Source of the DNA: a bacterium
Lineage (GTDB): Bacteria; JAAXHH01
DNA: 64,000 nt
Direction: 5' to 3'
Assembly (NCBI GenBank): GCA_965117045.1
Contig: OZ220749.1
Location: 2,416,552-2,480,551, forward strand
A program made the translations under genes and the position numbers. Below are positions 22,241 through 62,647 of this stretch, one piece after another. The first letter of the stretch is position 1. Each line of letters begins with the position of its first letter. The notes under the pieces are model-generated. The model saw nothing but the letters and a program-made list of their open reading frames with translations, did no database searches and was not told the DNA's origin.

Positions 22241-22367
22241 TTCAGATCCTCTCCAACTGATGGCATGAACTTTCTAGCTTCTGGTTAACATCTCTCATAA
22301 AGCGGTTCTCTATGCAAGAGGACGCGGGTCTTCTTGACGACGGTAATCACCGCCCTGTTTCAGTGAT

Positions 22368-22832: not shown

Positions 22833-22833
22833 G

Positions 22834-23187: not shown

Positions 23188-23590
23188 AGATAACCCACTT
23201 TCTCATTCCTAAGGTGCTACCATTCGGATTGCCTTGATTATATCGTTAGACGTACCACTGCTTGTATCAGTGGATAGATCCCGATTAAACCGGAACACTT
23301 TAGTTCTTGCTATACCGATACGAGGCTATTTCATACCCGTAATATACTCCGACCTGAAGCGGTATCCATTCGTTTACTAGAAAAACTAACCTCGAACGGT
23401 CAGGGAGTAATGATTTTGCTACAGGCACGGAAGGTATACTCGACACTCATTTCGGGCGGAATTTCGGACCGCTACGGAAGAATCTGCGTTACGCTTCTCT
23501 ATCAAGCAGGTTGTAGCCTCGGCAGCCGACCAAGCTCAAGCATCTGTAAACGTACTGTGACAGTATGCAGATATGTAGAGAGGAGGGGGA

Positions 23591-37788: not shown

Positions 37789-37825
37789 TACGATCTCCTT
37801 CCCATTCGTCTTTGTGGTTCCTGAA

Positions 37826-39073: not shown

Positions 39074-40410
39074 AGGTTCACTACCCGCCCCCGCTTGATC
39101 ACGGTCTGTACCGGGTTACCTCCGAAGAAATAAGGGATATGCCGGTAGTCCTGCGCCTTCAGTACGAGGAGGTCGGCCCGCTTGCCGGCTTCGATGGATC
39201 CCGCCTCTTCGCTTTGCCCGATCGCATGGGCGGCATTGAGGGTGGACGCGTTCAGCGCTTCCGCCGGAGTGAATCGCTGGTACCTGCAGGCGATGGCCAT
39301 GACTGCGGGCATGGATGGGCAGGGCGCGGAACCGGGGTTCAGGTCGGTGGCGAGGGCTACGGCTGCGCCTGAGTCCATCATCGCCCGGGCGTCGGCGTAA
39401 TCCGTCATGCCCAGGTTGAAGTTCACGGCCGGCAGCAGGACGCCGATCGTGTCCGACCGGGCCAGCGATTCGATCGCTGACGGACCCGTCACGTCGAGAT
39501 GGTCCACCGACGCGGCACCGAGTTCCAGCGCCAGGTCGACGCCGCCGAAATCATTGAACTGGTCCACGTGCATCTTCGCCTTGAAACCGGCTTCGATCCC
39601 CGCCTCCAGCACGCGGCGTGACTGGTCGAGATCGAAGGCATGGTCTTCGCAGAACACGTCGATGTACATGGGCACGCCGCGCGCCGCGAACCGGGACGAG
39701 GCGTACCAGGCCGCCGCTTCGGGCAGGATCTCGTCGATAACGCACCGTGCGTACCCTTCGGCATCCCCGTCGAATTCGGGAGGCACCGCGTGGGCGCCGA
39801 GGAACGTGGGCACGATATCGCAGGGATGGTCCTGGTCGAGCCGTTCGATGACCTGGAGCATCTTCAGTTCGTCTGAAGCGTTCAGCCCGTAGCCGGTCTT
39901 GATCTCCACGGTCGTAGCGCCCAGCGCCAGCATTTCGTCGAGCCGGGCTGTAGCGGAACGCGCGAGTTCTTCCACGGATGCCGCCCGCGTGTGCCGGACG
40001 GTACGGACGATACCCCCGCCGGCCGCCATGATTTCCAGGTACGAAGCGCCCTTGATCCGCTGCTCGAACTCCGCCGCCCGGTCTCCGCCGAAAACCGTAT
40101 GGGTATGGGCGTCCACGAAACCGGGACAGACGGACCGGCCCGTGCAGTCGATCACGCGTTCGGCCGAATAGGTTTCGTCCAGTTGTGTGGTCGGCCCGAC
40201 CGCCGCGATCCGCCCGTCATTTATCGCCACGGCGCCGCGCTCGATCACGGCGGCATCCGCCATGCCGAATCCGCGCTTCGGTGCGCCGGCCCCGCGCTTC
40301 GGTGCGCCGGCCTCCGCCATGGACGTCCCGCGCTTCGGTCGGTGCGATGCGCAGGTCACGACCTGTTCCGCGTTGTGGAGGTACAGATCTACGGTTTCCA
40401 TTTTGCTCAT
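39070..40410 (-). CDS. hutI: imidazolonepropionase
   Basis: Amidohydrolase motifs (FVDAHTHTVFGG ... HVDQF ... ATDLNPGS) characteristic of HutI. Contains an N-terminal repeat insertion. Confidence 0.85.
   Translation of the reverse strand: MSKMETVDLYLHNAEQVVTCASHRPKRGTSMAEAGAPKRGAGAPKRGFGMADAAVIERGAVAINDGRIAAVGPTTQLDETYSAERVIDCTGRSVCPGFVDAHTHTVFGGDRAAEFEQRIKGASYLEIMAAGGGIVRTVRHTRAASVEELARSATARLDEMLALGATTVEIKTGYGLNASDELKMLQVIERLDQDHPCDIVPTFLGAHAVPPEFDGDAEGYARCVIDEILPEAAAWYASSRFAARGVPMYIDVFCEDHAFDLDQSRRVLEAGIEAGFKAKMHVDQFNDFGGVDLALELGAASVDHLDVTGPSAIESLARSDTIGVLLPAVNFNLGMTDYADARAMMDSGAAVALATDLNPGSAPCPSMPAVMAIACRYQRFTPAEALNASTLNAAHAIGQSEEAGSIEAGKRADLLVLKAQDYRHIPYFFGGNPVQTVIKRGRVVNL
40271..40347. 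repeat. 21-nt tandem repeat (2 full copies + 1 diverged) inside hutI, encoding APKRGAG heptads
   Basis: ccgcgcttcggtgcgccggcc occurs twice in tandem (40271..40312). A diverged copy sits at 40328..40347. Translates to HRPKRGTSMAEAGAPKRGAGAPKRGFG. Confidence 0.7.
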
Positions 40411-40485
40411 CTCGAAACAGGAGGCGATCGTCGATCCGGAGTTTACGATCTTGCCGGGCCGCGCTCGGCCGCGGTGATATATGGA

Positions 40486-42087
40486 TCAGTCCAGCGTGGG
40501 TCCCGGGACGTTCACCTTCTCTCCGACCGCGGAGGTCACATCGCCCTGCGCGACGCGTTTTCGTATGGTTTCAAACAGTGGGGAAAGCGGGACGTCGCGG
40601 TCGAGGAAGGGGACGTGCCGGCGAATCAACCGGTATGCCAGGCCGGTACCGGCGCCCATGGCTTCCGCGGTGATCCCGGGTTCCCTGCATCTGAAATCGA
40701 TGGCCTGGGCGGCGGCGATCAGCTCGATGGCGACGATGGTCTCCACGTTCTCCACCACCTGCAGCGTGTGGTGCACCGACGCCGCGCCCATGCTCACGTG
40801 ATCTTCCGTGTTGGCGCCGCTCGGAATGGAGTCGGCGCTGGCGGGATGGGCCAGCACCTTGTTCTCCGACGCCAGGGCCGCCGCCGTGTACTGGGCAAGC
40901 ATCAGCCCACTTTCAAGTCCGCCGTGGTCCGTGAGGAACATGGGCAGAATGCCTCCGTTGGAATCGGCATCCACGAGCCGGGCCGAACGCCGCTCGCTCA
41001 TGTTGCCCATGTCCGCGAGCGCCAGTTTCATACTGTCCATGGCGACGGCGATGGGTTCGCCGTGGAAATTGCCCGCGCTGATGACTTCCGCGTCGTCGGG
41101 ATCGTCCCCGACGAAGACCAGCGGATTATCGTTCGCGGCGTTCAACTCGATGCCGACCACCCACCGGGCGTAGTCGATCGTGTCCCGGACCGTGCCGTGC
41201 ACCTGGGGGACGCAGCGCAGGGTATAGGGGTCCTGGACGTTGCCCGGATTGTCGGTACGCAACAGCCGGCTGCCGTTCAGGATGTCCCGCAGGAATCGCG
41301 CGCAGGCGATCTGCCGGGGGTGGGGCCGTATGGCGTGCACCCGCGCGTCGTAGGCGCGGTCGGTGCCGGCCAGCGCCTCCAGGGTCATGGCGGCGGCGAC
41401 GTCCGCCGTGAGGGCTAGGTGGGTCGCCCGATGGACCAGCAGGGCCCCGAGGCCGGCCATGAGCGTGGTTCCGTTCGTCAGGGCCAGCCCTTCCTTCGCG
41501 CCCAGGGTTACGGGCCGAAGCCCGGCTTCCTGCAGCGCGGACGCGCCGTCGAGCCGACGGGACCGGTACATGGCCTCGCCTTCGCCGATGAGCACCAGGG
41601 ACATGTGCGCCAGGGTCGCCAGGTCGCCGCTCGCGCCGAGGGAACCCCGTCCGGGTATGCAGGGATGCACGCCCGCGTTCAGCATGTCCACCATCAGCTG
41701 GACGACCTCGGTCCGTATGCCCGAATAGCCCATGGCGAGCGTATTGGCCCGGATGACCAGCATGGCCCGTACGGTTTCCTCGTCCAGTTCGGGACCGGTT
41801 CCGGCCGCGTGACTCCGAATCAGGTTCAACTGCAGTTCGGCGACCTGGCCGGGAGAGATCAGCTTGTCTTTGAACCGGCCGAATCCCGTGGTGATGCCGT
41901 AGGCGATCCGCCCTTCCGAGACCAGCCGGTCCACGACCTCCCGGGACCGTTCCATGGGAGGAAGGGCATCGGGGTGTATGGCGACGGTTCGACCCCGCGA
42001 GACGGCGACGACGTCGTCGATGGTGAGATCGTGACCCGTGAGGGCCAGGGGGTCCGTGCGGGAGAGTGTTTCCTGGGAAGTAGCCAT
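40486..42087 (-). CDS. hutH: histidine ammonia-lyase
   Basis: MIO-forming Ala-Ser-Gly triad in GSLGASGDLA. 533 aa. Aromatic ammonia-lyase family pattern throughout. Confidence 0.9.
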   Translation of the reverse strand: MATSQETLSRTDPLALTGHDLTIDDVVAVSRGRTVAIHPDALPPMERSREVVDRLVSEGRIAYGITTGFGRFKDKLISPGQVAELQLNLIRSHAAGTGPELDEETVRAMLVIRANTLAMGYSGIRTEVVQLMVDMLNAGVHPCIPGRGSLGASGDLATLAHMSLVLIGEGEAMYRSRRLDGASALQEAGLRPVTLGAKEGLALTNGTTLMAGLGALLVHRATHLALTADVAAAMTLEALAGTDRAYDARVHAIRPHPRQIACARFLRDILNGSRLLRTDNPGNVQDPYTLRCVPQVHGTVRDTIDYARWVVGIELNAANDNPLVFVGDDPDDAEVISAGNFHGEPIAVAMDSMKLALADMGNMSERRSARLVDADSNGGILPMFLTDHGGLESGLMLAQYTAAALASENKVLAHPASADSIPSGANTEDHVSMGAASVHHTLQVVENVETIVAIELIAAAQAIDFRCREPGITAEAMGAGTGLAYRLIRRHVPFLDRDVPLSPLFETIRKRVAQGDVTSAVGEKVNVPGPTLD

Positions 42088-42109
42088 TTTCCAGCCAGCG
42101 CTTCCGGAC

Positions 42110-43795
42110 TCAGTCCATCATGGGGATCTTGACGCCGCGGGTCTTCGCCACGGCCCGGGCCGCTTCGTAGCCGGCGTCGACGTGCCGGGCCACGCCCATC
42201 CCCGGATCGTTGGTGAGCACGCGCTCCAGGCGCCCGGCCGCTTCGGGCGTGCCGTCGGCGACGATGACCTGTCCGGCGTGCAGGCTGTATCCGATGCCCA
42301 CGCCGCCGCCGTGGTGGTAGCTCACCCAGGTGGCGCCGCTCGCCGTGTTGATCAATGCGTTCAGTACGGGCCAGTCCGCGATGGCGTCCGATCCGTCCTT
42401 CATGGCCTCGGTCTCGCGGTTCGGGCTGGCGACGGACCCGCTGTCGAGGTGGTCGCGGCCAATGACGACAGGCGCGGTGACCTCGCCCGAAGCGACCAGT
42501 TCGTTGAATTTCAGTCCCGCCCGGGCCCTTTCGCCGTATCCCAGCCAGCAGATACGGGCGGGAAGCCCCTGGAATTCCACGTGCCGTCGGGCCATCGTGA
42601 TCCAGCGGAACAGGTGATCGTCGTCCGGAAGCAGTTCCAGGATGGCCTGGTCCGTCCGGTAGATGTCCTCGGGATCTCCCGAGAGGGCGACCCAGCGGAA
42701 GGGGCCCTTGCCTTCGCAGAACAACGGACGGATGTAGGCCGGGACGAAACCGGGATAGTCGAAGGCCTCCTGCAGTCCGTTGTCATAGGCGCGCTGGCGC
42801 AGGTTGTTGCCGTAGTCGAAGACCACGGATCCCTGTTTCTGCCAGTCGAGCATGGCCTGTACGTGGACGGTCATGGAGGCGATGGAGCGTTCCTGGTAGG
42901 CGTCCGGATCGCGCTCGCGCAACCGGCGCGCTTCTTCGGGCGACAGCCCGGCGGGGATGTACCCGTAGAGCGGATCGTGGGCCGCGGTCTGGTCCGTGAC
43001 CACGTCGGGCACGATACCCCGGTCAAGCAGTTCTGGAAGGACCTCGGCGGCGTTTCCGATCAGGGCGATCGACCGAGCTTCGCCCGCGGCCAGCGCCTCG
43101 TCCACCCAGCTCAACGCGAGATCGAGGTTCTCCGCCACGGTATCCACCTGGCGAAGCTCCAGGCGCCGGCGGGCCCTCCACGGATCCACCTCCACCAGCA
43201 GTCCCACACCGCCGTTCATCGTGATGGCCAGCGCCTGGGCGCCGCCCATCTCGCCCAGGCCGGCCGTTAACACGAGCTTTCCCGACAGGCTGCCCCAACC
43301 GTGTTTCCGGGCGAGCGCGCCGAAAGTCTCGTAAGTACCCTGCAGGATGCCCTGCGTGCCGATGTAGATCCAGCTGCCGGCCGTCATCTGGCCGTACATC
43401 GTCAGGCCCTCGCGCTCCCAGGCGTCGAAGTTCTCCTGCGTCGCCCAGGCCGGCACCATGTTCGAGTTGGCGATCAGGACGCGCGGCGCGTCCTCGTGGG
43501 TACGGAACACCGCCACCGGCTTGCCCGACTGCACCATGAGGGTCTCGTCGGGTTCCAGGTTCCGCAAGGCGTTCAGGATGGCTTCGAGGGCTTTCCGGTT
43601 CCGAGCGGCCTTGCCCCTGCCGCCGTAGACGACGAGGTTGTCCGGATCGAAGGCGACCTGAGGGTCCAGGTTGTTCTGGATCATGCGGTAGGCCGCTTCG
43701 ATGAGCCAGTTTCTGCAATGCAGCTCGGTTCCCGTCGGTGCTTTCACGATCTGGTCCAATAGGCTGCTTACGCCTTCGATTCCCGGTTCTTCCAC
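42110..43795 (-). CDS. hutU: urocanate hydratase
   Basis: 561 aa. N-terminal [28 protein letters not shown] and NAD-binding GGMGGAQ-like block (GLGEMGGAQ). Confidence 0.9.
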
Positions 43796-45413: not shown

Positions 45414-46472
45414 TTACCATTTCTCCGGGTCCAGCCCGACCCGGATCCCGGCTTCCTCGATCTGCTGCCAGGTCGTGTCGTCGATGTTGATGCCTTCCCG
45501 CCGGCGCTTCGCCGCCAGGCGGAACTCCGGTTCGCCCGGCATGAGAATCTCGTCGAATCCCGGCGCCGTCCGGCTGGCCTTTACGTGCCGGATCATTCCT
45601 TCGATTTCCTCGAAGTACCATTCCAGGTCCGTAAAGAAGGAAATGTCGTAAACGGTGAAGAGTACCCCGTTGCTCGAAACGGTCTGTTCCCCCTGTGCGC
45701 AACCCTGTCCACTCAGCGTACCGCCCAGGATTTCCACGAGCATGCCCAGGCTGTACCCCTTGTGGGCGACGATGCCGCCCATGGGCAGGATCGCGCCGTT
45801 GGGCGGCGGACCTTTTATCACCGTAGGGTCGGTCGTAGGATTTCCTTCGTGGTCGATCAGCCAGCCTTCAGGAACCCGCACGCCCTTGTTCGCGGCCACA
45901 CGCACCTTGCCCTCCGCGACGACGGAGGTGGTCAGATCCACCATGACGGGATCGTCGTCCCGGCGAGGGGCCGAGAAGGCGATGGGATTGGTGCTGATGC
46001 GTCCGTCGATGCCGCCGAAGGGTGGTATCTGGCGTCCGAACCGGCCCGCGTTGACGAAGGCCAGTCCGATCAGCCCTTCCCGGGCCGCCATGAGCGGATA
46101 GGCGCCCACACGCCCCACATGACTGGTGCGCCGGAGGGAAACCGTGGCCGTGCCGTGTTCTCGCGCCTTCTTCATGGCCAGTTGCATGGCAATAGTACCG
46201 CCTACCTGGCCGAGGGCGCCGCCATTGTCCACCACCGCCGTGCACGGACTTTCCCGTAGGACCTGCACTTCGGCCTTCGCCTTGAATCGACCCTCGTCCT
46301 TGATGGCCTTGACGTATTCCGGAATTCGAATGGCGCCGTGGGAGTCGTGGCCGAAGAGATTGGAATCCACGAGATGGTCCACGACGCTGCGGGCGTCGTC
46401 CGCCGTACAGCCGGCCGCCTCCATCACTTCGCAGCCGATTCGATGCAGTTTGTCAGGGGTAATTACTGGCAT
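45414..46472 (-). CDS. Ldh family 2 oxidoreductase (malate/L-lactate/sulfolactate dehydrogenase-like)
   Basis: 352 aa. Conserved DSHG..R block (FGHDSHGAIRIPEY) and TNPIAF typical of Ldh_2. Confidence 0.75.
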   Translation of the reverse strand: MPVITPDKLHRIGCEVMEAAGCTADDARSVVDHLVDSNLFGHDSHGAIRIPEYVKAIKDEGRFKAKAEVQVLRESPCTAVVDNGGALGQVGGTIAMQLAMKKAREHGTATVSLRRTSHVGRVGAYPLMAAREGLIGLAFVNAGRFGRQIPPFGGIDGRISTNPIAFSAPRRDDDPVMVDLTTSVVAEGKVRVAANKGVRVPEGWLIDHEGNPTTDPTVIKGPPPNGAILPMGGIVAHKGYSLGMLVEILGGTLSGQGCAQGEQTVSSNGVLFTVYDISFFTDLEWYFEEIEGMIRHVKASRTAPGFDEILMPGEPEFRLAAKRRREGINIDDTTWQQIEEAGIRVGLDPEKW

Positions 46473-46490: not shown

Positions 46491-47540
46491 TTATCTGCTG
46501 AACTTCTCCAGTTTCCTCTTCAGTCCCGGACGGTCGAGCACTGCCCGGTTGACCACGTAGGGAGGCTCATCTCCCCGGGAGACGGCCAGGGCCGCCTTCA
46601 TGCAGTCGTGTCCGATATCGCGAAACAGCTCGTGGGTCCAACACGAAGCGTGAGGCGCCAGTATGACGTTGGGAAGGGACAGCAGGGGATCGTCGGCGTC
46701 TGGTGGTTCCCGCTCGAAAACGTCAATGGCCGCGCCTGCTATCCAGCCTTCCTGCAACGCCTGCTCCAGTGCTTTCTGGTCGACGATGGCGCCACGGGCC
46801 GTGTTGATCAGGAAGGCGTCCTCCCGCATCATGCGCAGTTCCCGCGGACCGATCAGGTACCGGGTGTGTTCGTTCAACGGGCAGTGGATGGTAACGAACG
46901 TGCTGCGCCGCAACAGGGTCTCCAGATCGACCAGGGTAACGCCCAGTTGCGCGGCCTCCTCCCCGGACACCGCGGGATCAGAGACCAGGATTTCGGACGG
47001 CTCGAAGGGCGCCAGCATGCGCACCACCTCGCGGCCGATCATGCCCATGCCGATCAGGCCGACCACGCGGCCCCGGATCTCGCATCCCATGTGATCGAAT
47101 CGGATGTCCCAGTCGTCGTTCCGTACGATGGCGTCCTTGATCGTCACCCGGTGGCAAAGACCGAGCATCAGGGCCATCGTCGCGCTCGCCACGGGTCTCC
47201 GCGTGGCCTCGGGGGTGATCGTCACCATGACGTCCGCTTCCGTCGCGGCGTCCATATCGATCATATCGTAGCCCACGCCCGTCCGGGCGATGAGCGCGAG
47301 ACGCTCGACGCCCGCGAAGGACTCCCGCGTGTAGGATTGTCCCATGGATATCACCGCGTCGAAACCGGCGAGCTGATCGGGAGTGACGGGACTCAGGTCC
47401 TCCTCCAGGAAGGCGCGGAAAACCCCGGCTTCGTCCAGCAGATCGACGCCGAAATCGTCAAACACGACCCCACCGTCGGGACCCAGCAGGTCGGCGACCA
47501 GGGCTACGCGGAATGCATCGGTCATAAACTGTCCGTTCAC
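46491..47540 (-). CDS. D-isomer-specific 2-hydroxyacid dehydrogenase family, NAD-binding
   Basis: Rossmann GLIGMGMIGREV. Catalytic-region pattern ...R...E...H (APHASCWTHE). Confidence 0.8.
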   Translation of the reverse strand: MNGQFMTDAFRVALVADLLGPDGGVVFDDFGVDLLDEAGVFRAFLEEDLSPVTPDQLAGFDAVISMGQSYTRESFAGVERLALIARTGVGYDMIDMDAATEADVMVTITPEATRRPVASATMALMLGLCHRVTIKDAIVRNDDWDIRFDHMGCEIRGRVVGLIGMGMIGREVVRMLAPFEPSEILVSDPAVSGEEAAQLGVTLVDLETLLRRSTFVTIHCPLNEHTRYLIGPRELRMMREDAFLINTARGAIVDQKALEQALQEGWIAGAAIDVFEREPPDADDPLLSLPNVILAPHASCWTHELFRDIGHDCMKAALAVSRGDEPPYVVNRAVLDRPGLKRKLEKFSR

Positions 47541-47572: not shown

Positions 47573-49621
47573 TCAGAACAGGATCTGGGACGTGGACTTG
47601 GCGATCAGCACCAGGGAGACGGCCGCCATGCCGATCAGCCCCAGGCCGCATCCGTATCCGGCCAGGATAACAGGTGCATAGGCCCGCCACCTTTTTTCTC
47701 CGTAGCGCCGTCCGAAATAGAACCTTCCCAGCATGGCGCCGATGAACGTGGGCAGCGTGTAGTGTATCCAGGCGCCGGTGCCCAGTCCCGCGACCAGACC
47801 GTAGAAGAGCAGCGGCGGGGCCTTGAGCAGGCTCAGGACCCCGTAGAGGGCCACCGTGAACCCCATCCCGGCGCCGATGTACTCCCACTTTATGAGTTGC
47901 CCGATCACATCCGATCCGCCCGGAAGGGTCGACTTGATCCAGATCGTTTCCATCGTCGCCTGCAGCGGCCACATCTTTTCTACGAAGGGATAGGCCGCGG
48001 ACGGTATGGGCGCCAGTTTCCAGATCAGGGCGTAGAACAGGAAACTGAATACGATGAGCAGCAACAGGCTCAATATATACAGTTTGACCAGGCTTGGAAA
48101 TCGCGTTCGGGTGAGTTCAAGCTGCCGGAAGGTCGCAACCACGCCGCTGTGATCGAAGAGCGGAACCGGCGCGAACCAGATGGCCACGCCCTTGTAGCCC
48201 GACAGGTAGAAGGACCCCTCTCGCGCGTAGGGGAAGGACGATCCGTAGGGCGAGCCCGTGAGGCCGATCATGCGCGCGCCGATGTAGGAGAAGAAGGGCG
48301 TCCACAGGAACCCGAATACCACGGAGATCCATACCGGGAACGAGGGTTCCAGGTAGTAGACCAGGAGGATGAAGCACACGGTCGAAACCGCCCAGAGCGC
48401 GATGGGAATGGGCAGCCTGAAATCGCCCCGGTCCGGCGGCGGCCGGCGGGGTCCCTGGCCTCCGGATGCGCCGTCCGGGTCTCGCCTCAGGGCGCGGGCG
48501 AAGGCGACCAGGCCGATCAGGCCGATGACCAGCGAAGTGCCGATCGAGGAGAAACTCAGCCAGAAATCGATGGTATTGTTGATGGAGGTGGGGATGGTGC
48601 TCATCCCCGGCGCCCAGCTGTGCAACAGGCCGAAGTGGTAGAGGGCCGGGTTGGCGATAAAGGTGACGACGAAGGAACTGATGAAGGTGCCGACCACGAT
48701 CCAGAAGGGAAGGACGAAACCCACCAGGAGCGTGGCCATGTCCGTGCCGATGCCGATGGGCGACGCGGGCAGCACGTCCCGTACCCGAGGCGTGAAGTCC
48801 GCGAAGGGAATGGGGAAGACCTCGACGCCCTTGGTCAGCACCACGCCCGATACCGTCGGGACGACCACGTAGAGTATGCCCCAGCCCAGGCCGATCATCG
48901 CGCCGACGGTAAACAGGCGCCATCGCCAGGTCTCCTCGCCCGCCGACGATTCCGCCAGCGCGGTGGCGCCGGCCGCCTGTACGGGCGCCAGGGGAAAGGG
49001 CAGGCGCTCGGTGTCGGCTGTGATCCGGAAGAGCACGTAGCCCAGGGAAAGGGCGTTGACCAGGCCGAGGATAGACACGAGGACGGCCAGGAGAATGGGT
49101 TCCAGCCACTCCATGGAGAAGAGGGTCCGAGTAATCAGCGAATCGGAACCCCGGGGCAGCGACACCCACTGCGGAAGCAGCTGGGCCAGGCCGTCCGCCT
49201 GGGGGGACTGGATCAGGTACTGGAACCAGATCATCTTGGCGAAAGGCGCGCCGTGCACCGACGATCCGGCGGCCATGCCGCTGGCGCCCAGTCCCGTTGC
49301 CGCCAGACCGGCGGCGAGCCAGTAGAGGATGATGGCTTCCTGGGGCTTCAGCTTGATGAACAGGCGCTTCCCGATCTCGATGAACATGATGATGGTGACC
49401 CATTCCGCGGCGCCCGCGAAACTCTTTCCGGTCACCAGTTCCAGGTAGATCGCCCCCGGAAGCATGACCAGCCCGACGAAGAAGGCGGCCCAGATGATCC
49501 GGCTGCTGAACCCGTCCTCGTAGGGCAGGCTGTCCGGAACGATCTGCCACCGGTCGTCCTGTTCGGCGGCCGCCGCGTCCTGGTCCCGCGGTTCCTGCTG
49601 TTCACGCCTGGTGTCACTCAT
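47573..49621 (-). CDS. large polytopic membrane protein of unknown function (paralog B)
   Basis: 682 aa, at least 14 hydrophobic segments. Shares blocks with the 715-aa protein (G.GAPF...P..W; YIG.R.IG..G.PY). Charged N-terminal tail. Confidence 0.55.
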   Translation of the reverse strand: MSDTRREQQEPRDQDAAAAEQDDRWQIVPDSLPYEDGFSSRIIWAAFFVGLVMLPGAIYLELVTGKSFAGAAEWVTIIMFIEIGKRLFIKLKPQEAIILYWLAAGLAATGLGASGMAAGSSVHGAPFAKMIWFQYLIQSPQADGLAQLLPQWVSLPRGSDSLITRTLFSMEWLEPILLAVLVSILGLVNALSLGYVLFRITADTERLPFPLAPVQAAGATALAESSAGEETWRWRLFTVGAMIGLGWGILYVVVPTVSGVVLTKGVEVFPIPFADFTPRVRDVLPASPIGIGTDMATLLVGFVLPFWIVVGTFISSFVVTFIANPALYHFGLLHSWAPGMSTIPTSINNTIDFWLSFSSIGTSLVIGLIGLVAFARALRRDPDGASGGQGPRRPPPDRGDFRLPIPIALWAVSTVCFILLVYYLEPSFPVWISVVFGFLWTPFFSYIGARMIGLTGSPYGSSFPYAREGSFYLSGYKGVAIWFAPVPLFDHSGVVATFRQLELTRTRFPSLVKLYILSLLLLIVFSFLFYALIWKLAPIPSAAYPFVEKMWPLQATMETIWIKSTLPGGSDVIGQLIKWEYIGAGMGFTVALYGVLSLLKAPPLLFYGLVAGLGTGAWIHYTLPTFIGAMLGRFYFGRRYGEKRWRAYAPVILAGYGCGLGLIGMAAVSLVLIAKSTSQILF

Positions 49622-49625
49622 CCGC

Positions 49626-50783
49626 TTATTCGGTCCTTACGTAGTCGCCCGCCTTGTCCCAGTCCGGCCGCGACAGGCCGTTCAGGTCCCAGACCACCTC
49701 GCCGGCCCGCACCGTCAGCAGGCACCTCAGCCGCCGGTCGCCGCGCATGCGCGCATGGCCCGAGTCCACGAAACCGAATTCTCCGTATTCCAGCTCCAGC
49801 ACGGCGACGTCCGCCTCCGCGCCGATGCTCAGCGTACCCAGTTCCGGGCGCCGGATGGCGCGGGCGGGATTGCGCGTGGAGCGCATGACCACGTCCTCCA
49901 GCGTCATTCCCATGTTCAGGCATTTGGACATGGTCGTGTTCATGCTCGCGTTCGGTATCAGGGCGCTGTACTTGTGGAGGTCCGTGCTGATGGTATCCGG
50001 CAGGAACCCCTGCTCGATGGCCGGCACGGCGATGCGGAACCAGAAGCTGCCGCCGCCGTGGCCCAGGTCGAACAGGATGCCCTTGTCCCGCGCCTCCCGG
50101 ACGTAGTCGTTCACCCGGCCGTGCCCGTCCAGCAGGGGGATGTGCTGCGCGTAGAGGTGCGTATGAATGTCGCCGGGACTCAGCTTCTTCAGCAGCAGGT
50201 CCCGGTAGCTGCGGGTCGGCTTCGGCGCGAAATCGATCATGGCGATGGTGCCGCTCCGCCGGGCCGCCTCGACGGCGCCGTCCACCGCCTCCCATCCCGG
50301 TCCCCCGAAATGGGCGGTCTTGGACCCGACGACGTGTTCCGGGTACCTGCTGATCATGTCCGCGCAGGGTACCGGGTCCATCTCCGAGACGTCCTGCTCC
50401 ACGGCGCCTTCCATGCCGGCGCCCACGATGTTGATCAGCGCCAGCACGCGGGTAATGGACTCGGCGATGACCGTGTCCTTGAAGTCTTCGAACTTCTTCC
50501 ACCCCGCGCCCCCCGTATCCAGCACCGTGGTCACCCCGTTGGGGAGCACATGGGCGTCGGGGAAAACCCACCCCCGGTATCCACCGTAAGCGTGCATGTG
50601 GATGTCGATCAGCCCGGGCGTGACGTAATGGCCGTGGACGCGGGCGACCTTCCGGCCGTGCTCCGCCGGGATGTCGTGCTCCACCGCCGCGATCAGGCCG
50701 TTGTCGACGGCTACGTCCCGGCTTCCGCTGATGCCGTTCTCGGGATCGATGACGTGGCCGCCCTTGATGATCAGATCGTACAT
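49626..50783 (-). CDS. amidohydrolase-family metallohydrolase (D-aminoacylase / dihydroorotase-like)
   Basis: HxH metal motif DIHMHAYGG. Additional His/Asp ligands (HTHLY..., DLGHGGG). 385 aa. Confidence 0.7.
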   Translation of the reverse strand: MYDLIIKGGHVIDPENGISGSRDVAVDNGLIAAVEHDIPAEHGRKVARVHGHYVTPGLIDIHMHAYGGYRGWVFPDAHVLPNGVTTVLDTGGAGWKKFEDFKDTVIAESITRVLALINIVGAGMEGAVEQDVSEMDPVPCADMISRYPEHVVGSKTAHFGGPGWEAVDGAVEAARRSGTIAMIDFAPKPTRSYRDLLLKKLSPGDIHTHLYAQHIPLLDGHGRVNDYVREARDKGILFDLGHGGGSFWFRIAVPAIEQGFLPDTISTDLHKYSALIPNASMNTTMSKCLNMGMTLEDVVMRSTRNPARAIRRPELGTLSIGAEADVAVLELEYGEFGFVDSGHARMRGDRRLRCLLTVRAGEVVWDLNGLSRPDWDKAGDYVRTE

Positions 50784-50802: not shown

Positions 50803-53800
50803 TTACAGGGCCGTGTGACGATCGAAAGCCCTGACGTCCCGGTACCGCGCCTTTATGGGCTCGGCAATGGTCCGCCACACGAGAAACCGCTTCCTCAGTA
50901 CGGTAAAGAACCGCCGATTGATCGTCTGCCACTGCGCCAGGTCGCCGCTGCGTCGGTGGATCACGATCAGGATGCGGTACAGTCTCTCGTGAAGCACGGG
51001 TTCCAGTTCAAGCCGCACGTCCTGGCTGATGGCGAGGTCATAGGGCGCCAGCCAGACGGTGGACGCCACGTGATACGTGTCGAAGGTATCCCCCGGTATC
51101 GCGTCGAGCGTGGTTCCCTCCGCGACGAAGTCCTCCGCCGAACTGTCTTCATGCGTCTGGAAGATGTGGTTCAGGTAACCCGACAGCGGCAACGCTTCGG
51201 GGACGGTCACCGTGAAGGGAAACTCGAAGCACCAGTCGTCTTCGTCGGGCGGCGGGGGCGACCAGCGACGCGTCACGTCCTCTACCGTCATGTCCGCGGC
51301 CTTCTTTGCCGGGTAGAGGGTGGACAGGAAGACGATGGCCATGACGACCACCGTGGCGTACACGGTCGACAGGGAGGAATAGTTGAGCGACATGCCGCCC
51401 AGCAGGTCGAATTGCGAGAGTCCCATGGTGATGATCTGGCCGGCCAGGTAACCGAAGACGGCCCCGAGGGTCGCGAACACGGCGGCTTCGGCGATGAACA
51501 GGGCGGCGACGTGGTTCGGCGCCAGGCCGACCGCGCTGTAGACGCCGATTTCCCGGAACCGTTCGAACACGGCGCCCATCATGGTGTTCAACACCAGGAA
51601 CGCCGCGATGAGCACCGGGATGATCAGGTTGGCCAGGCCCGAAACCGAAGTGGCGCCCAGGGAGCTGTAAACCCTTACCTCGTCTTCCAAGCCGACGAAC
51701 ACGGCCAGGAGGACCCGCGACATGAAGGCCTCCACGGAGTCGCGGAGCTCTTCGCCGCCGTCGAAGCCCGCGATCGCCACGGACCGCGTGGACCCGTTCA
51801 GGTCGAGCGTCTGCCGGTAGGGCAGGACCAGCACGTTGCGGGACGGCAGGTGCTCGGAGGCCTGGATGGTGGACATGAACACCTCCACGTCCATTTCGGT
51901 CAACGAGCGCGTTATCGAGAAGCTGGCGGGCATGATGCTTTCGTCGTCCATGTCCCGGTAGGCGTCGAATCCATCGGAATCGAGCAGTCCGATCACGGTA
52001 TAGCGTCCACCGAGGATCTCCACCTCCGCCGTACCCACGTCCTCCGGTCCCACGTCCAACCGTTCGGCCAGTTCCGTGGGCAGCAGGCAGGCCGCCCTTT
52101 CGTCCGGGGCGAACCACCGTCCGCCCGGCACCAGGTAGCGGTCCAGACCGGTGACGGCCGGTTCGTCGGCGTGCAGTCCCAGGATGGACTGTACCGTGCT
52201 GGCGGTCCCCTTGCCCGGCGCGCGCAGATCGATGTAGGGACTGGTCATGTCCTCCGGCTCGTACCAGGACCGGGGCACCACGTCCGCCTGGTCTTCGAAG
52301 GCGTTTTCCACGTAGGGCAGGAAGGACGTGGGCAGGGAGTGCCACGACAGGCTGCGCATGAGGACGCCGTCGTACGGCGGGGTGTTCTCACGGTCCAGCG
52401 TATAGAACTGGATGCCGGTCCGAAAGGAAGTGAAGGACAGTACGGTGAAGGTCAGCAGGGTCAGCGTGACCGCCGTCAACGCCGTGCGCATCTTCCGCTT
52501 GCGCAGGTTCGATATGCCCAGGGAAATGGCCACCGCCGTGGCGCTCAGCCGGCCGATGTCCGCCTCGTGGAGGCCGGCCGCCGACCGGGTCAGGTTCTTC
52601 ATTTCGGTGTCGAACCGGGTGACGATCATGGTGATGATGATCAGCGCCATGGCCAGGATGATGAAGGCGAGAAAGACCATGTACGGCGTCAGGCTGAGCT
52701 GAAAGGCGGGGTGCACGTTCTGCAGCAGCATGAAGACCGCCGCGAAGATGACGCCCACCGAGGCCAGCCGCTTCCGAATGTCTGTGAAACCGAAGAACAG
52801 CCGTTCGAGGAAGAAACAGAAGGGGACGAGCAGCATGAAGTAGAACACGATGCCGTCCACCGTGTCGTCCGCGGCGTACCGCACGTCGGGATAGGCCCGC
52901 GCCTCGTAGCCCCACGCCTCCCTCGACTGTGCGGCGAAGGCGTCGTACCGGCGGTTCTCCAGGGCTTCCCGGGCGGCTCGAAGCGCCCGGGTGCTTTCCT
53001 CGTGCAGCTCGGCGGCCCGGGCGTTGGTCACGCCGTGGTCCTCCAGTTTCATCAGGCGGGCCCGGTTGAGCGACCACAGGTCCAGGGCGCTCTGGTAGAA
53101 GGGGTAGAGGATCAGGCCCTGGTCTGCCGTGAATCCGCGTCCCTGGGCGAGGGCCATGGCGTCGTCCGAGATACTTTCCGGCGGATCGTCGAGCCACGAT
53201 TCGGGCGTGTTGGTCAGCAGGTACTTGACGCCCCGGGGACCGGAGCTCATGAACATCTTGACCCGGTCCTCGGCCCGGGCGAAGACCACCGCGGCGTTGG
53301 TCATCCAGTTGCCGAAGAAACTCTGATCCTCCACGAAGGCCGCGCCGTACTTGCGCAGCGGACTGTTGTCCCGGCCGAGTACGGTCAGGTTGTCGAGGGC
53401 GACGAAGACGCCGGGGTCCACGATGTCGAAGAGGTTGATCTCCTCGCAGGGGAAGAGGACCTGGATGGTATTGTTCACCTTGGAAGAATTCGGCACCGCG
53501 AGGGGAAAGGTGGCGTTGCCCTCTTCACCCAGGTCCGGGGCGTACACGATCCGGCCGTCGACGCCCAGGCCGTAGCTGCGCAGTTCCGTCGGTCCCCGGG
53601 GGAACCGGACCATGGAATGCCTGAAGTGCCCCAGCGAGTCGGCGTGGGTAACCATGAACCCCCGCACGCCGCTGTGGCTCTGGTATCCGGGCTCGTAGAC
53701 GACCAGGGCATCGGACACCGGGGTATTGGGCTTGAAGAAATCCACCGTGCGGTCGAATTCGAGGACCCGGCCCTCGATGTCGCGGCCCTCGTCCTTGAGC

Positions 53801-55371
53801 CGTATCGACTCGTCCACGTCGAAGGCTTCGGGATCGGACAGCATGGCGGGAAGCAAGGTGCCGAGCGTCCGGATCTGCCGGACCAGGTTGGGGAAATCGA
53901 CATACTCGATCCGGTCCTTCGGGGTATCGATGAGGAGCCGGTTGTCGTTCACCGTGGCGAAGGTCATGCCGTGGAGTCCGGCGAGCGTGACCATCTCGTG
54001 GTCGAAGGCGGGCCCCGCGGGCATGAAGCTCTCCTGCGACCGGAGCGGGTGCGTCAGCGTGTTGAGGTAGGCCGTCCGGCTGTCCACTTCATCGTGGACC
54101 CCGGCCTTGCGCGCGTAATTCAGGTACCGGTCCGCGTAGGGTTCGAACAGGATATCCAGATTCGAGGTGAAGAAGATGAAATCGCCGTAGCTGAACAGGC
54201 CGACCTGATCCGCCCTGCTGGTCAGGTCCAGGCCCAGGAAGAGCGTGAAGGGTATCCGGTCTTCTTCAGATATCCGCTCCAGGAAGAACTCGTCCTTCCG
54301 CTGGTGCCGGTCCAGGAAGTCGTTTACGCCCTGCAGCCCGTGGAAATGGGCGGACGTGGCCAGGAACAGCACGGTGTATCCCGGCGGATGGGCCCGGAGC
54401 ACGTCCATCAGCTCCAGCATGGCGGCGATGCCCCCCGCGCCCTCGGCGCCCGGCGCCAGTCCCGGTACGACCGACATGGCGTCGTAGAACGCCGACAGCA
54501 CGACGGTCCGGTCTTTCCATTTCTCCGTGCCGTCGCCCCCCGGCAGCGGTTCGTCCCGGCCCGGTATCCACCCCATGACGTTCCAGGTCTCGGCCCGCTC
54601 CCAGGTCATGCGTCCCCGGATCGTCACTTCGACCTCGCCGGACCGCGCGGCCGCCAGGACCGCGGCGGCATGCGGGTCCGGGACCCAGAAGCGCGGCACG
54701 TCGGCGGGCACGTCCAGGATCTTGCGCTGGGCCTGGTTGTTGGTTACCGCGCCGGGGCCGTTGTCGTAGAACAGGACAGCCTGCGCGCCGAGCATACGCG
54801 CGTTGAGATACTGGTCGCGCCCGTCGAAATCGACCAGGACGATGCTGCCCTCGATCTCCTTCCCGTTGAAGGCCTGGAACTCGCCCTGCCGGCCGTAGTG
54901 CAGGGGGCCCCGGATCCCGTCCGGAAAGGAGTTCAGCCGGACCAGGTTGGGCCAGAACTGGTACACCGGTATCTCGGTCTCCACGGAGTCGTGCACGGTC
55001 AACGTGAAACCGTGGTCGACGGGCGAGGATACGGTAAAGGTGTCGACGGCGACCTCGGTCAGGCCGCCGGCATGGAAGGCATCGACCACGTATTCCATGG
55101 CCGCCCGGTTTCCGGGATAGCCGACGACGCGCGACGGGTTTTCGCTCATCGCCCGGACATGGGCCTCCACGCGTTCCGGGGTGACGATTTCGGATACCTC
55201 TTCCCAGGACACCGGCGCCTCCTCGAGGGGCCTGGGCGGCACGTCCTCGGGAAGGGATACGATCCTCAGGATCACGTGTTCCGTCACCCAGGCCGGCCCG
55301 GCCACGGCCACGGCGAGGAACAACAGGACGCCCACGGCGAGGAAGAAGGTTCCGAATATCCGCGAATACAC
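50803..55371 (-). CDS. giant fusion protein: TM + PA/M28-peptidase-like ectodomain + complete MacB/FtsX-type permease + C-terminal domain
   Basis: GTG start. N-terminal TM. PA-domain-like GSIVLVDFDGRDQYLNARMLGAQAVLFYD. M28-like block YDAMSVVPGLAPGAEGAGGIAAMLEL. Multi-TM linker. MacB-like TM1 (RKRKMRTALTAVTLTLLTFTVLSF) then a roughly 300-aa periplasmic domain. FtsX 3-TM bundle (NTMMGAVFERFREIGVYSAVGL...). Roughly 200-aa cytoplasmic tail. Continuous 1522-codon ORF. Confidence 0.7.
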   Translation of the reverse strand: MYSRIFGTFFLAVGVLLFLAVAVAGPAWVTEHVILRIVSLPEDVPPRPLEEAPVSWEEVSEIVTPERVEAHVRAMSENPSRVVGYPGNRAAMEYVVDAFHAGGLTEVAVDTFTVSSPVDHGFTLTVHDSVETEIPVYQFWPNLVRLNSFPDGIRGPLHYGRQGEFQAFNGKEIEGSIVLVDFDGRDQYLNARMLGAQAVLFYDNGPGAVTNNQAQRKILDVPADVPRFWVPDPHAAAVLAAARSGEVEVTIRGRMTWERAETWNVMGWIPGRDEPLPGGDGTEKWKDRTVVLSAFYDAMSVVPGLAPGAEGAGGIAAMLELMDVLRAHPPGYTVLFLATSAHFHGLQGVNDFLDRHQRKDEFFLERISEEDRIPFTLFLGLDLTSRADQVGLFSYGDFIFFTSNLDILFEPYADRYLNYARKAGVHDEVDSRTAYLNTLTHPLRSQESFMPAGPAFDHEMVTLAGLHGMTFATVNDNRLLIDTPKDRIEYVDFPNLVRQIRTLGTLLPAMLSDPEAFDVDESIRLKDEGRDIEGRVLEFDRTVDFFKPNTPVSDALVVYEPGYQSHSGVRGFMVTHADSLGHFRHSMVRFPRGPTELRSYGLGVDGRIVYAPDLGEEGNATFPLAVPNSSKVNNTIQVLFPCEEINLFDIVDPGVFVALDNLTVLGRDNSPLRKYGAAFVEDQSFFGNWMTNAAVVFARAEDRVKMFMSSGPRGVKYLLTNTPESWLDDPPESISDDAMALAQGRGFTADQGLILYPFYQSALDLWSLNRARLMKLEDHGVTNARAAELHEESTRALRAAREALENRRYDAFAAQSREAWGYEARAYPDVRYAADDTVDGIVFYFMLLVPFCFFLERLFFGFTDIRKRLASVGVIFAAVFMLLQNVHPAFQLSLTPYMVFLAFIILAMALIIITMIVTRFDTEMKNLTRSAAGLHEADIGRLSATAVAISLGISNLRKRKMRTALTAVTLTLLTFTVLSFTSFRTGIQFYTLDRENTPPYDGVLMRSLSWHSLPTSFLPYVENAFEDQADVVPRSWYEPEDMTSPYIDLRAPGKGTASTVQSILGLHADEPAVTGLDRYLVPGGRWFAPDERAACLLPTELAERLDVGPEDVGTAEVEILGGRYTVIGLLDSDGFDAYRDMDDESIMPASFSITRSLTEMDVEVFMSTIQASEHLPSRNVLVLPYRQTLDLNGSTRSVAIAGFDGGEELRDSVEAFMSRVLLAVFVGLEDEVRVYSSLGATSVSGLANLIIPVLIAAFLVLNTMMGAVFERFREIGVYSAVGLAPNHVAALFIAEAAVFATLGAVFGYLAGQIITMGLSQFDLLGGMSLNYSSLSTVYATVVVMAIVFLSTLYPAKKAADMTVEDVTRRWSPPPPDEDDWCFEFPFTVTVPEALPLSGYLNHIFQTHEDSSAEDFVAEGTTLDAIPGDTFDTYHVASTVWLAPYDLAISQDVRLELEPVLHERLYRILIVIHRRSGDLAQWQTINRRFFTVLRKRFLVWRTIAEPIKARYRDVRAFDRHTAL

Positions 55372-55372
55372 G

Positions 55373-57367
55373 CTAGTCTATCCCGTAGATATGATGGCCG
55401 GCGTGGGGAAACCACACGTAGTCGACGAACATGGAGATGACCACGCCGGTGACCACGCCGAAGATCAGGCCCAGGAAGAAGGGCTGTCCCTTCCGGTACA
55501 GTTCGATGCCGCCGACCCACATCATGATGCTCTTGATGACCCAGCACACGAACATGGACGAGACGATCGCCCGGGCGGGCCAGGAGTATGAAAGGAAGAA
55601 TCCGAGGGGATGCAGCGGCCAGCCCGGCAGCCGGGCCCTCAGCGTCATGAGCAGAAACATGAGCGCACCGCCCACCATGAAGAACATCAGCCGCGCCGTG
55701 TCCGGTCCGAAGGGATCTCGCATCTTGGTCAGTGTTTCATTGTAGGGGATGGTCGATCCGATCCGGCCGAACCACCAGCCGTTGGTGAACTGGCGCGTAC
55801 CCAGGTCGAACCCCATGTAGATCGTCCAGACCAGCGAGATCACCACGCCGATCACCGCGGCGGAAAGAAGCGACCAGCCCAGGCCGCGTTGCCAGCGCGT
55901 GCCGATCTCGGACAGCTTGGCCGCCTGCATGAAGGCGGGCATGAAGGTCGACTTGATCTCGCTGACAGGTCCGTAGGTCTGAGCCATGGCCGTCATGGTG
56001 GACATGGAAAGGTTGGCCGACCCGACCGAATAGAACACGAGCACCTGGGCGATCATGGGCGAACGCACGTAGGGCAGCCCGGCCTCGGCGATGATTCGGG
56101 ACACGCCGATATAGATGATGAACACGCCGGCGAGGAGGAATACGGCGATGGGCACGCTCATGCCCAGCTGGTTCAGCCAGACCACCCCGTAGACGAAACC
56201 GCCGATGAATCCGAAGACCGCGACCCGGTAGGGCAGCATCTCGTCCGAGTCGTCCAGGTCCGACCTGCGGCCGAAGGCCTGGGAGACCACGGCGCGGATG
56301 TGAAACCGCGCCCGCCAGAGCCCCCATCCCACGAAGAGGATGAACGCGCCCATGTTCTGCCAGTCCAGCATGGGATGGATCGAGGTGTAGTTGTCCCGTC
56401 CCGGGATGTCGTACCCGATCCGGTGGGCGATGCCCACCTGGATGATCCCGATCATGTAGAATACCCAGAAACCGGCGAGGACGTCCAGGTTGACGAAATA
56501 GGAAATGCCCAGGATGGCCGGGCGGAAGTTGATTTCCAGCGGCGGAAAACCCTCGCCGAACACGATGGGCGGCGCCGACCCGAAATAGGGGAACTGGGGC
56601 ACGACCGGGGTGAAGAACCCGACGATGTTGTACATCATCACGCAGAACGGGATCGAAAAGCCGATCCAGAACCGCTTCTCCGAGAGAAAGGCCGGGATTC
56701 GGCTCGGCGAATCCATGCCGCGGGTGAAGGCGAGGGGGATCTGCATCATGGGAAAGACGAGCTTCTCGTGTTCGACCCACTGCCGCCTGAGGATGACCAC
56801 GAGACACAGGCCCATGAAGATGATCGGGACGATGAAGGTCAGCCACCAGAACAGCGGAATGCCCCACACGCTCCAGGGAATGGACGCGCCGGGCGGGATC
56901 CCGTCCACCAGCCACGTAAGGGCGTTGCCCTGGTTCGTGACGTTCGCCCAGGGTTGCAGGTACGGGTAGAAGTACTCGGCCCACTGGTTCTCGGGCGTCG
57001 CCAGCAGATAGGGGGCCATCAGCGTGGAGATGAACGGGGCGCCCATGCCGTTGGTCGTCAGCCCCGATGCCGCCATGCCCATGACCAGGGGGATGACGAA
57101 CTCGTGGGGCGTGAGGGCCCAGTCCTTCTTCCACCTCGCCAGCACCACGTTGAATATGACCAGGTACCCGAAGGCCAGAAACAGCGCGCCGATGTGGAGA
57201 TGATCCGCGCCCAGCTGGGACGAGGCCATGGTGTACTGGAAATAGGGGACGATCAGGGAGATCAGGACGACGCTCGTCAGGCCCAGGAGAATGGATCGCG
57301 GCGTAATGATCCGGGTCGCGGTCGCACGGACAGCGGAGGCGGAAACACTTTGCTGTACTGAGGCCAT
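55373..57367 (-). CDS. large polytopic membrane protein of unknown function (paralog A)
   Basis: Start moved to MASVQQ at 57367. The longer ORF runs to 57520, but its first roughly 50 aa look like translated intergenic sequence. Stop is 1 nt from the GTG start of the fusion gene. Homologous blocks with paralog B. Confidence 0.55.
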   Translation of the reverse strand: MASVQQSVSASAVRATATRIITPRSILLGLTSVVLISLIVPYFQYTMASSQLGADHLHIGALFLAFGYLVIFNVVLARWKKDWALTPHEFVIPLVMGMAASGLTTNGMGAPFISTLMAPYLLATPENQWAEYFYPYLQPWANVTNQGNALTWLVDGIPPGASIPWSVWGIPLFWWLTFIVPIIFMGLCLVVILRRQWVEHEKLVFPMMQIPLAFTRGMDSPSRIPAFLSEKRFWIGFSIPFCVMMYNIVGFFTPVVPQFPYFGSAPPIVFGEGFPPLEINFRPAILGISYFVNLDVLAGFWVFYMIGIIQVGIAHRIGYDIPGRDNYTSIHPMLDWQNMGAFILFVGWGLWRARFHIRAVVSQAFGRRSDLDDSDEMLPYRVAVFGFIGGFVYGVVWLNQLGMSVPIAVFLLAGVFIIYIGVSRIIAEAGLPYVRSPMIAQVLVFYSVGSANLSMSTMTAMAQTYGPVSEIKSTFMPAFMQAAKLSEIGTRWQRGLGWSLLSAAVIGVVISLVWTIYMGFDLGTRQFTNGWWFGRIGSTIPYNETLTKMRDPFGPDTARLMFFMVGGALMFLLMTLRARLPGWPLHPLGFFLSYSWPARAIVSSMFVCWVIKSIMMWVGGIELYRKGQPFFLGLIFGVVTGVVISMFVDYVWFPHAGHHIYGID

Positions 57368-57533
57368 GGAGTGGGCGGAGAATGGAGTGGTCGGAAAACG
57401 GTTCTTGCGCTTTTGGCAAAGGGATTGAATTAAAAAAAAGGTCCAGCATATGTAAGGTCGCGCGCGGGATAAGTCAAAGAAAAACGCCTTTCGCCGAAGT
57501 CCTTCAGCCCCGTTGCACAAGCCGTTTTAGTGG

Positions 57534-57562
57534 TTGACACTCCAGTGGTTTACGGGGATATT
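57534..57562 (+). promoter_or_regulatory. candidate sigma-70 promoter for the MMPL gene (TTGACA-17-GATATT)
   Basis: Consensus -35 TTGACA at 57534..57539. 17-nt spacer. Weak -10 GATATT at 57557..57562. Consistent with a GTG start at 57604 preceded by GAGGAA. Confidence 0.25.
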
Positions 57563-57603
57563 TCCATACCTTGGATGTGCGCGTTTCACACGAGGAATGC
57601 ACC

Positions 57604-62562: not shown

Positions 62563-62647
62563 CACGGCAGGCCGGGCGCCCGGACGGGCCAGGTTTGCAC
62601 AGCGGGCTGGAACGCGAGCGTCCACGCACCAGAAGAGGCGGAAACCG

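Follow-up and report, generated by a model that had tools for sequence, protein, structure and literature searches.

Members of the OPT transporter family (TC 2.A.67; PF03169) have 16 (or 17) transmembrane segments, and all those that have been functionally characterised take up peptides or metal chelates by cation symport (PMC3061005). In barley HvYS1, an elevator-type transporter driven by protons, a core domain binds the substrate and a scaffold is responsible for dimerisation; the protein was purified and solved as a dimer held together by the scaffold domains, and a functional monomer was not excluded by the authors (PMC9691689). From an analysis of genomic context, many prokaryotic OPTs were suggested to be peptide transporters, those of 650–690 amino acids (aa) being so predicted, and oligosaccharides were proposed as substrates for one prokaryotic subcluster (PMC3061005). 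Here, we describe two polytopic membrane proteins, A1 and A2, encoded in a 64,000-nucleotide stretch of DNA from the bacterium JAAXHH01 (contig OZ220749.1 of assembly GCA_965117045.1, positions 2,416,552 to 2,480,551; hereafter, the window), and the giant protein encoded between them, in which an M28-like ectodomain is joined to an FtsX-type permease half. We consider it very probable that A1 and A2 are divergent members of the OPT superfamily, and we favour, at a probability of roughly 60%, the reading in which the two transporters and the giant protein (the fusion) make up one uptake module. The three genes are:

55373..57367, minus strand: A2, a 664-aa polytopic membrane protein with Pfam domains DUF6785 and DUF6784 and a predicted OPT-superfamily fold; first gene of the run

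50803..55371, minus strand: fusion, 1522 aa, with a PA/M28-like ectodomain and a MacB/FtsX-type permease half

47573..49621, minus strand: A1, a 682-aa polytopic membrane protein with an ATG start and without a Pfam or NCBIfam match

A previous, sequence-only reading of the window had held A1 and A2 to be diverged paralogues. Both open reading frames exist on the minus strand, but the 715 aa given for the second protein do not correspond to 55373..57367, which encodes 664 aa. The longer form starts at an upstream in-frame TTG at 57520, a start to which homologues give no support, since they are 664 aa long and fully cover the ATG-started form; P0121, for example, is 93% identical, 664 aa long and spans 100% of the query. 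Aligned directly with BLASTP, A1 and A2 share a weak but real similarity, consisting of one high-scoring segment (75 aa, 31% identity, E = 5e-4) that surrounds the GAPF block. Their relationship is far more evident at the profile level. Homologues were gathered for each protein, yielding alignments of 39 (A1) and 50 (A2) sequences, and comparison of the two profiles with hhalign gave a probability of 96.5%, an E-value of 9e-10 and a score of 85.5 over 567 collinear columns, spanning residues 22–649 and 11–640, respectively, or nearly the entire distance from the N- to the C-terminus. The blocks on which the claim of paralogy had been based, GAPF, YIG.R.I..G.PY and the Gly-rich C-terminal helices, align with each other, and an E-[KR]-L-x-F-P block is common to the A1/A2 alignment and the OPT family. 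In a set of 240 sequences, the hidden Markov model (HMM) of each family found the other family with E-values of 1e-6 to 1e-7 (hmmsearch). Chance likeness between two hydrophobic proteins was considered and rejected, since the end-to-end alignment was lost in the hhalign controls: with the A2 columns reversed, the best match had an E-value of 0.22, while five shuffles of 25-column blocks gave E-values of 5e-4 to 5e-3 over only 16–84 columns, reflecting a short local motif. On the evidence of these profiles, A1 and A2 are true but very old paralogues, homologous over their full length. The at least 14 transmembrane helices previously ascribed to each of them are plausible rather than established: scanning of hydropathy over 19 residues found 11 strong segments in A1 and 11 in A2, and the structural models described below each contain ≈13 helices of at least 17 residues, plus 6–8 short ones.

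A2 scores above the cutoffs of two Pfam families, with 366.6 bits for DUF6785 (PF20581; E = 2e-109, residues 22–523) and 81.2 bits for DUF6784 (PF20580; E = 7e-23, residues 561–651). All 50 aligned A2 homologues match both families strongly, and A2 has no match in NCBIfam. A1 matches neither of the two families, nor anything else in Pfam or NCBIfam, and ten further A1-type proteins had no Pfam match. In the earlier reading, no family signature had been recognised. A total of 1728 homologues of A1 were collected, several of which are named “peptide transporter” in NCBI records.

The family alignments served as input for AlphaFold2. The model of A2 was confident, with a predicted local distance difference test (pLDDT) score of 89.7 and a predicted TM-score (pTM) of 0.90, and that of A1 was fair (pLDDT 73.5, pTM 0.81). 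When these models were compared to the PDB with Foldseek, HvYS1 (7wsr/7wst) was the only structure found at E ≤ 0.001 for either protein (A1: E = 3.6e-9, TM-score 0.58–0.67; A2: E = 4e-10, TM-score 0.64–0.70). The probability of these matches was 1.00, and the next structures had E > 0.01 and TM-scores below 0.15. The likeness to HvYS1 is one of overall fold, and is accompanied by a similar size (≈620–690 aa). Conserved acidic residues are E82, D203, E205, D275, D294, D352, D400 and E468 in A1 and E89, E126, E201, D373 and E376 in A2; the aspartates of the proton site in HvYS1 are D446, D490 and D494. Searches of the PDB by sequence, with the A1 profile, the A2 profile and the A1-family member P0114, gave nothing useful.

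A connection to the OPT family was also found through intermediate profiles. Run against 1.84 billion cluster representatives, the A1 profile returned 1054 proteins at E ≤ 1e-3, so that the A1 family itself is small. A second tier in this search, denoted group A4, comprised proteins of 615–661 aa with scores of 230–320 bits. PF03169, the Pfam OPT model, was matched by 31 of the 54 group A4 members (best E = 5e-18), and in one of them (P0338) the match of 56.5 bits covered profile positions 12–618 of 623. The A2 (DUF6785/6784) profile aligned to that of the OPT-positive group A4 with a probability of 99.1% and E = 9e-19 over 572 columns (hhalign). Within the A1 family, P0114 passes the gathering cutoff of PF03169 (28.7 vs. 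25.8 bits); it is the only one of 39 A1-family members to match this model, which is matched by none of the 50 A2-family members. Because the HvYS1 fold and the profile bridge to an OPT-positive subfamily point the same way, there is little doubt in our minds that A1 and A2 are divergent OPT-superfamily transporters that lie outside the current PF03169 model. This placement supports the secondary-transporter-like character proposed for both proteins earlier. The outcome that would have overturned the earlier reading, a clear match of both to a well-known family of established substrate, was not obtained, since neither scores on the OPT model itself and the prokaryotic OPT members were still biochemically uncharacterised in a 2011 survey (PMC3061005). 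No match at E ≤ 1 was found for A1 or A2 to MOP, YfhO-like or other flippase families in Pfam or NCBIfam. Pfam lists DUF6785 and DUF6784 as two families of unknown function. However, the alignments of A2 with both A1 and group A4 run through the two parts, and the pair behaves as one fold; the DUF6785/DUF6784 split thus appears to divide a single OPT-like fold.

Some A1-family proteins are considerably longer (810–1080 aa) and carry an extra domain near profile position 560 (P0265, P0246, P0241, and the genes at 5762..8200 in L128 and 7569..10013 in L138). The extra domain is a PDZ domain in P0265, and gave a faint propeller-repeat match in P0246.

The neighbourhood of these genes was followed in two directions. 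A scan of representative genomes anchored on A1 yielded 80 loci, all of them from Latescibacterota, Gemmatimonadota or Zixibacteria-type metagenome-assembled genomes (MAGs) or from unclassified MAGs; the closest was 97–99% identical to the window. Near-identical modules lie, for example, on the complete chromosomes OZ252103.1, OY762445.1 and OX638340.1. Of the 80 loci, 40 had full flanks and a diverged A1 (52–59% identical). Both a DUF6785 homologue (34–41% identical to A2) and a fusion homologue (39–49%) were present in 30 of the 40, the fusion only in three and A2 only in one. A reciprocal scan of metagenome contigs anchored on the fusion yielded another 80 loci at 34–74% identity, in which at least one OPT-like neighbour was found in 68; the fusion stood alone in 13 of the 80, many of which were cut contigs. 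Where at least 5 kb was available on both sides (n = 24), both transporter types were present in 16 loci, the A1 type only in four, the A2 type only in three and neither in one. The unit that is conserved thus consists of the fusion with either or both of the OPT-type transporters. Distance matrices of A1, A2 and the fusion are also correlated (r = 0.95–0.98), but shared descent accounts for this, and the correlation was given no weight as a sign of interaction.

In the window, the three genes belong to a nearly gapless run of six on the minus strand, in the order A2, fusion, amidohydrolase, A1, 2-hydroxyacid dehydrogenase and Ldh_2, with the following additional features:

49626..50783, minus strand: amidohydrolase/deacetylase-family metallohydrolase, 385 aa, between the fusion and A1

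46491..47540, minus strand: D-isomer-specific 2-hydroxyacid dehydrogenase, 349 aa, Pfam 2-Hacid_dh_C at 186 bits, 32 nt downstream of A1

45414..46472, minus strand: Ldh_2-family (malate/L-lactate dehydrogenase type 2) oxidoreductase, 352 aa, Pfam Ldh_2 at 357.7 bits; last gene of the run

57368..57570: divergent intergenic region between A2 and an MMPL gene, 203 bp

The intergenic gaps along the run are 1, 19, 4, 32 and 18 nt. The 1 nt between the A2 stop and the fusion start at 55371 and the 4 nt between the amidohydrolase stop and the A1 start agree with the gaps of 1 to 5 nt previously described. No non-coding stretch between 45414 and 57570 exceeds 32 nt except the 203-bp region at 57368..57570, which probably holds the promoter of the six-gene run. 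No strong terminator was found inside the run in a terminator scan, and the scans for sigma-70 promoters and terminators performed no better than on shuffled sequences.

The sequence-only reading had assigned each transporter its own soluble-enzyme-like partner, the fusion ectodomain for one and the amidohydrolase for the other. This pairing is not borne out by the wider comparison. The amidohydrolase, which scores 370.7 bits against NCBIfam NF006689 (cutoff 371) and also matches Pfam Amidohydro_1/3, was found only in loci in which A1 is at least 75% identical to that of the window, and was therefore rejected as a dedicated A1 partner; the fusion is the conserved neighbour of both transporters. 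Judged by this distribution, the amidohydrolase gene, which separates the fusion from A1, is an insertion specific to this lineage. The gene order of the window is kept, as far as contigs reach, where A1 is at least 82% identical, and the 2-hydroxyacid dehydrogenase was found beside A1 only where A1 is at least 72% identical. Ldh_2 is syntenic in most of the close loci, and some distant loci have a 39–45%-identical Ldh_2 homologue on the opposite strand.

The alternative that fares best, although we consider it unlikely, is that A1 and A2 are independent OPT-type importers, co-regulated with their neighbours but without a mechanistic link to the fusion, and that their substrate is perhaps not a peptide. 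Metal chelates and oligosaccharides would then be candidates, as would acylated hydroxy or amino acids destined for the neighbouring deacetylase and dehydrogenases. Those OPT and YSL members that have been characterised work without a partner (PMC9691689, PMC3061005), and the oligosaccharides proposed for one prokaryotic subcluster (PMC3061005) and the occurrence of DUF6785 pairs in sulfatase/oxidoreductase clusters would be in line with such a role. The amidohydrolase, 2-hydroxyacid dehydrogenase and Ldh_2 of the operon fit an acylated small-molecule substrate, but these catabolic enzymes are confined to the close relatives of the window. The trio of A1, A2 and the fusion persists at 35–55% identity and in at least six gene orders, as counted in the diverged A1-anchored loci, and several genomes have two or more modules, such as L026 and L062 on OX638377.1. 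Because the association persists across gene orders, divergence and multiple copies, shared regulation alone is a poor explanation for it.

A second alternative, which we rate somewhat lower, is that A1 and A2 form an obligate heterodimer, in which the scaffolds would pair as in the HvYS1 homodimer to give one transporter with two different transport domains. The precedent of a scaffold-joined dimer (PMC9691689), the co-occurrence of the two types (30 of the 40 A1-anchored and 16 of the 24 fusion-anchored loci with sufficient flanks), often as adjacent genes only 37–47 nt apart, and the pairing of the distant DUF6785 genes all agree with this idea. However, many modules have one type: among the 80 fusion-anchored loci, the commonest contiguous order was fusion (FUS)>A1 without an adjacent A2 (21 loci), followed by the order of the window, A2>FUS>A1 (18), and by FUS>A2>A1 and A2>FUS (9 each). 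Modules with A1 only or A2 only occur even when the flanks are complete, A1 paralogues exist as orphans, and in loci of the L026 type A1 and A2 lie 4 kb apart with opposite-strand genes between them. In HvYS1, too, the authors could not exclude a functional monomer (PMC9691689).

In the reading that we prefer, A1, A2 and the fusion act as one uptake module. The fusion has an N-terminal anchor, followed by a PA and M28-like ectodomain, a further large extracytoplasmic region, a three-helix hydrophobic cluster and a C-terminal MacB/FtsX-type half, which has a large domain between its first two helices and ends in a cytoplasmic tail of ≈150 aa. Pfam scores were 52.1 bits for FtsX, 36.6 bits for Peptidase_M28 and 26.2 bits for PA, and there were weak NCBIfam matches to LolC/MacB permeases. 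When residues ≈290–490 were compared to the 2ek8 aminopeptidase, the motif AH.DS was found to be replaced by AFYDA, DD by EG, EE by HF, and H..D by DTP.D. The canonical di-zinc ligands (H, D, E, D, H) and the catalytic Glu are missing in all 55 fusion homologues examined. Since the motifs that take their place (A[FYH]YDA, PGAE[NSG], GHF[QEH]GL and DTP.D) are conserved in the same 55 homologues, the comparison suggests a non-canonical site under selection rather than decay, and the M28-like domain is probably not a standard di-zinc aminopeptidase.

The C-terminal half of the fusion resembles the type VII ABC systems MacB, LolCDE and FtsEX in having an FtsX-type permease whose first two helices are separated by a large extracytoplasmic domain. 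The fusion differs from these systems in that the permease is joined in cis to an ≈850-aa PA/M28-like ectodomain and extra transmembrane helices, and in its pairing with secondary transporters, for which the literature searched gave no precedent. At 13 distant loci (L109, L121, L127, L130, L131, L139, L140, L154, L158–L160, L163 and L164), a small FtsX-type protein of about 215–280 aa and a LolD/MacB-type ATPase are encoded beside the A1-type gene, usually 0.05–3 kb downstream and on the same strand; in L127, they are upstream and on the opposite strand. In L139, the small FtsX protein is encoded at 16750..17394 and the ATPase at 17410..18141. The presence of both components in the distant modules is a further point of likeness to the MacB, LolCDE and FtsEX systems, and suggests that the FtsX half of the fusion is part of an assembly akin to type VII ABC systems.

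Export or mechanotransmission is the typical task of FtsX/MacB systems, and a flippase-like function had been proposed for A1 and A2 from the sequence. Nevertheless, a role other than import, with A1 and A2 as exporters or flippases, or as transceptor-like sensors that cooperate with the FtsX machinery, is very improbable, given that all functionally characterised OPT members carry out uptake by cation symport (PMC3061005), that there was no match to MOP, YfhO or other flippase families, and that the neighbouring genes are catabolic.

In the uptake module, A1 and A2 would each be a cation (proton)-coupled elevator-type importer, by analogy with the OPT family, in which a mobile core slides against a scaffold. 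Outside the cell, the fusion would bind or process a substrate that is peptide-like or derived from amino acids. In the distant versions of the module, this extracellular step would probably be driven by the small FtsX partner and the ABC ATPase. Both OPT-type paralogues would then import the products, probably with different specificities, and in the lineage of the window the amidohydrolase/deacetylase, the 2-hydroxyacid dehydrogenase and Ldh_2 may have been added for downstream catabolism. In the TRAP and TAXI systems, an extracytoplasmic binding component cooperates with an elevator-type secondary transporter; the resemblance is a functional analogy in concept only, as A1, A2 and the fusion have no sequence or fold relationship to them. 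The parts of this proposal are not equally firm. Functional coupling of the transporters with the fusion is, in our judgement, likely. A peptide-like substrate is a more tentative suggestion, to which we give slightly less than an even chance; it is based on the PA/M28-like ectodomain of the fusion, the PDZ domain inserted in the A1-family variant P0265, the neighbouring amino-acid catabolism genes (hutU, hutH, hutI, hutF and creatininase) and the published context analysis of prokaryotic OPTs (PMC3061005).

A bolder form of the proposal, which we regard as rather doubtful, is a single membrane machine made up of A1, A2 and the fusion, with the small FtsX protein and the ABC ATPase as additional components in some lineages. 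In such a machine, a type VII ABC-like mechanotransducer would drive the non-canonical M28/PA ectodomain to capture or process an extracellular peptide or protein, and the products would be handed straight to the elevator-type OPT importers.

A number of observations weigh against the proposed uptake module and the assignments on which it is built. Neither A1 nor A2 has an OPT (PF03169) match at E ≤ 1, and the two proteins are only ≈13–14% identical to HvYS1. A regular-expression search found neither NPG nor KIPPR, two motifs known from many OPT proteins (PMC3061005), in either of them; A1 has an invariant N324-P325 within “NPA”. The TM-scores to HvYS1 are moderate, and the pLDDT of the A1 model is just 73.5. 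As of a 2011 survey, no prokaryotic OPT had been biochemically characterised (PMC3061005), so that both the direction of transport and the substrate are extrapolated from plants and fungi. Since the canonical zinc ligands and the catalytic Glu are missing, it is doubtful that the M28-like domain of the fusion has peptidase activity, and the ectodomain may bind rather than cleave. The 64-kb window encodes neither an ABC ATPase nor a small FtsX partner, and neither was found in 83 related loci (L001–L083), the ATPase having been sought with a Walker A plus LSGGQ regular expression and phmmer; in the lineage of the window, the ATPase would be either encoded elsewhere or lost. Six of the 40 diverged loci with full flanks have neither partner, and orphan A1 paralogues are found, for example, in L058 and also in L063, L074, L080, L081 and L083. 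Finally, distant DUF6785 genes occur without the fusion among sulfatase and oxidoreductase genes, which implies that the substrates of the wider family are not all peptides.

Several of these loci have features of their own. The orphan A1 genes are second paralogues, ≈55% identical and with no A2 or fusion nearby, in genomes that are close relatives of that of the window; the one in L058 (9980..12004; OY762445.1, the same chromosome as L014) adjoins DapA-like and MBL-fold genes. Between the widely spaced A1 and A2 of L026 (11950..16048) are genes for a formylglycine-generating-enzyme-like lipoprotein, a leucine-rich-repeat-like protein and two NHL-repeat proteins, all putative assignments from the translations. 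The distant DUF6785/6784 genes form convergent pairs, 32–34% identical to A2, at 10001..13897 in L084 and at 10001..13964 in L085 and L086. Their neighbours include sulfatase, GFO/IDH/MocA, SDR and succinate-dehydrogenase-like genes, with no fusion and no A1-type gene.

OPT transporters as such are well known. What is new is the superfamily placement of A2 (DUF6785/6784) and of the Pfam-orphan A1 family, by which DUF6785, DUF6784 and a family covered by neither Pfam nor NCBIfam now receive a probable fold and superfamily, and the recurrence of both families beside a giant M28-like/FtsX protein. No description of this module was found in the literature searched, which held no relevant paper on DUF6785/DUF6784 or on the combination of FtsX, M28, OPT and Latescibacteria. 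The module supplies defined prokaryotic OPT candidates together with a conserved partner protein. Uncultured Latescibacterota and Gemmatimonadota-type bacteria have expanded A1 and A2 families, a single genome holding several copies, and many of these genomes were recovered from marine and sponge metagenomes, settings in which the uptake of organic nitrogen from the host or from detritus shapes their ecology. If the association with the FtsX-type protein is physical, it would be a new way to couple extracellular substrate handling to secondary transport. A single machine, if it exists, would represent a new class of processing-coupled uptake, in which a primary-active mechanotransducer is joined to secondary transporters.

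No second copy of A1 or A2 was found within the window. Divergently from A2, an 857-aa MMPL/RND-type membrane protein is encoded at 57571..60144 on the plus strand, and the same neighbour is present in an 87%-identical relative (L002). Just downstream of the transporter operon and on the same strand (36934..43795, minus) are hutU (42110..43795), hutH (40486..42087), hutI (39070..40410) and hutF (37826..39073), followed by a creatininase gene (36934..37788); the hut genes are not at the corresponding position in L002. The G+C content is 0.50–0.55 at 1..4000 and 20001..24000, compared to 0.60–0.67 over most of the window, and these stretches could be foreign or otherwise atypical DNA. Beyond the MMPL/RND-type gene, a complete bacillithiol set lies on the plus strand at 60185..63769, consisting of bshC (60185..61840), bshB1 (61837..62562) and bshA (62648..63769), all of which exceed their NCBIfam equivalog cutoffs.

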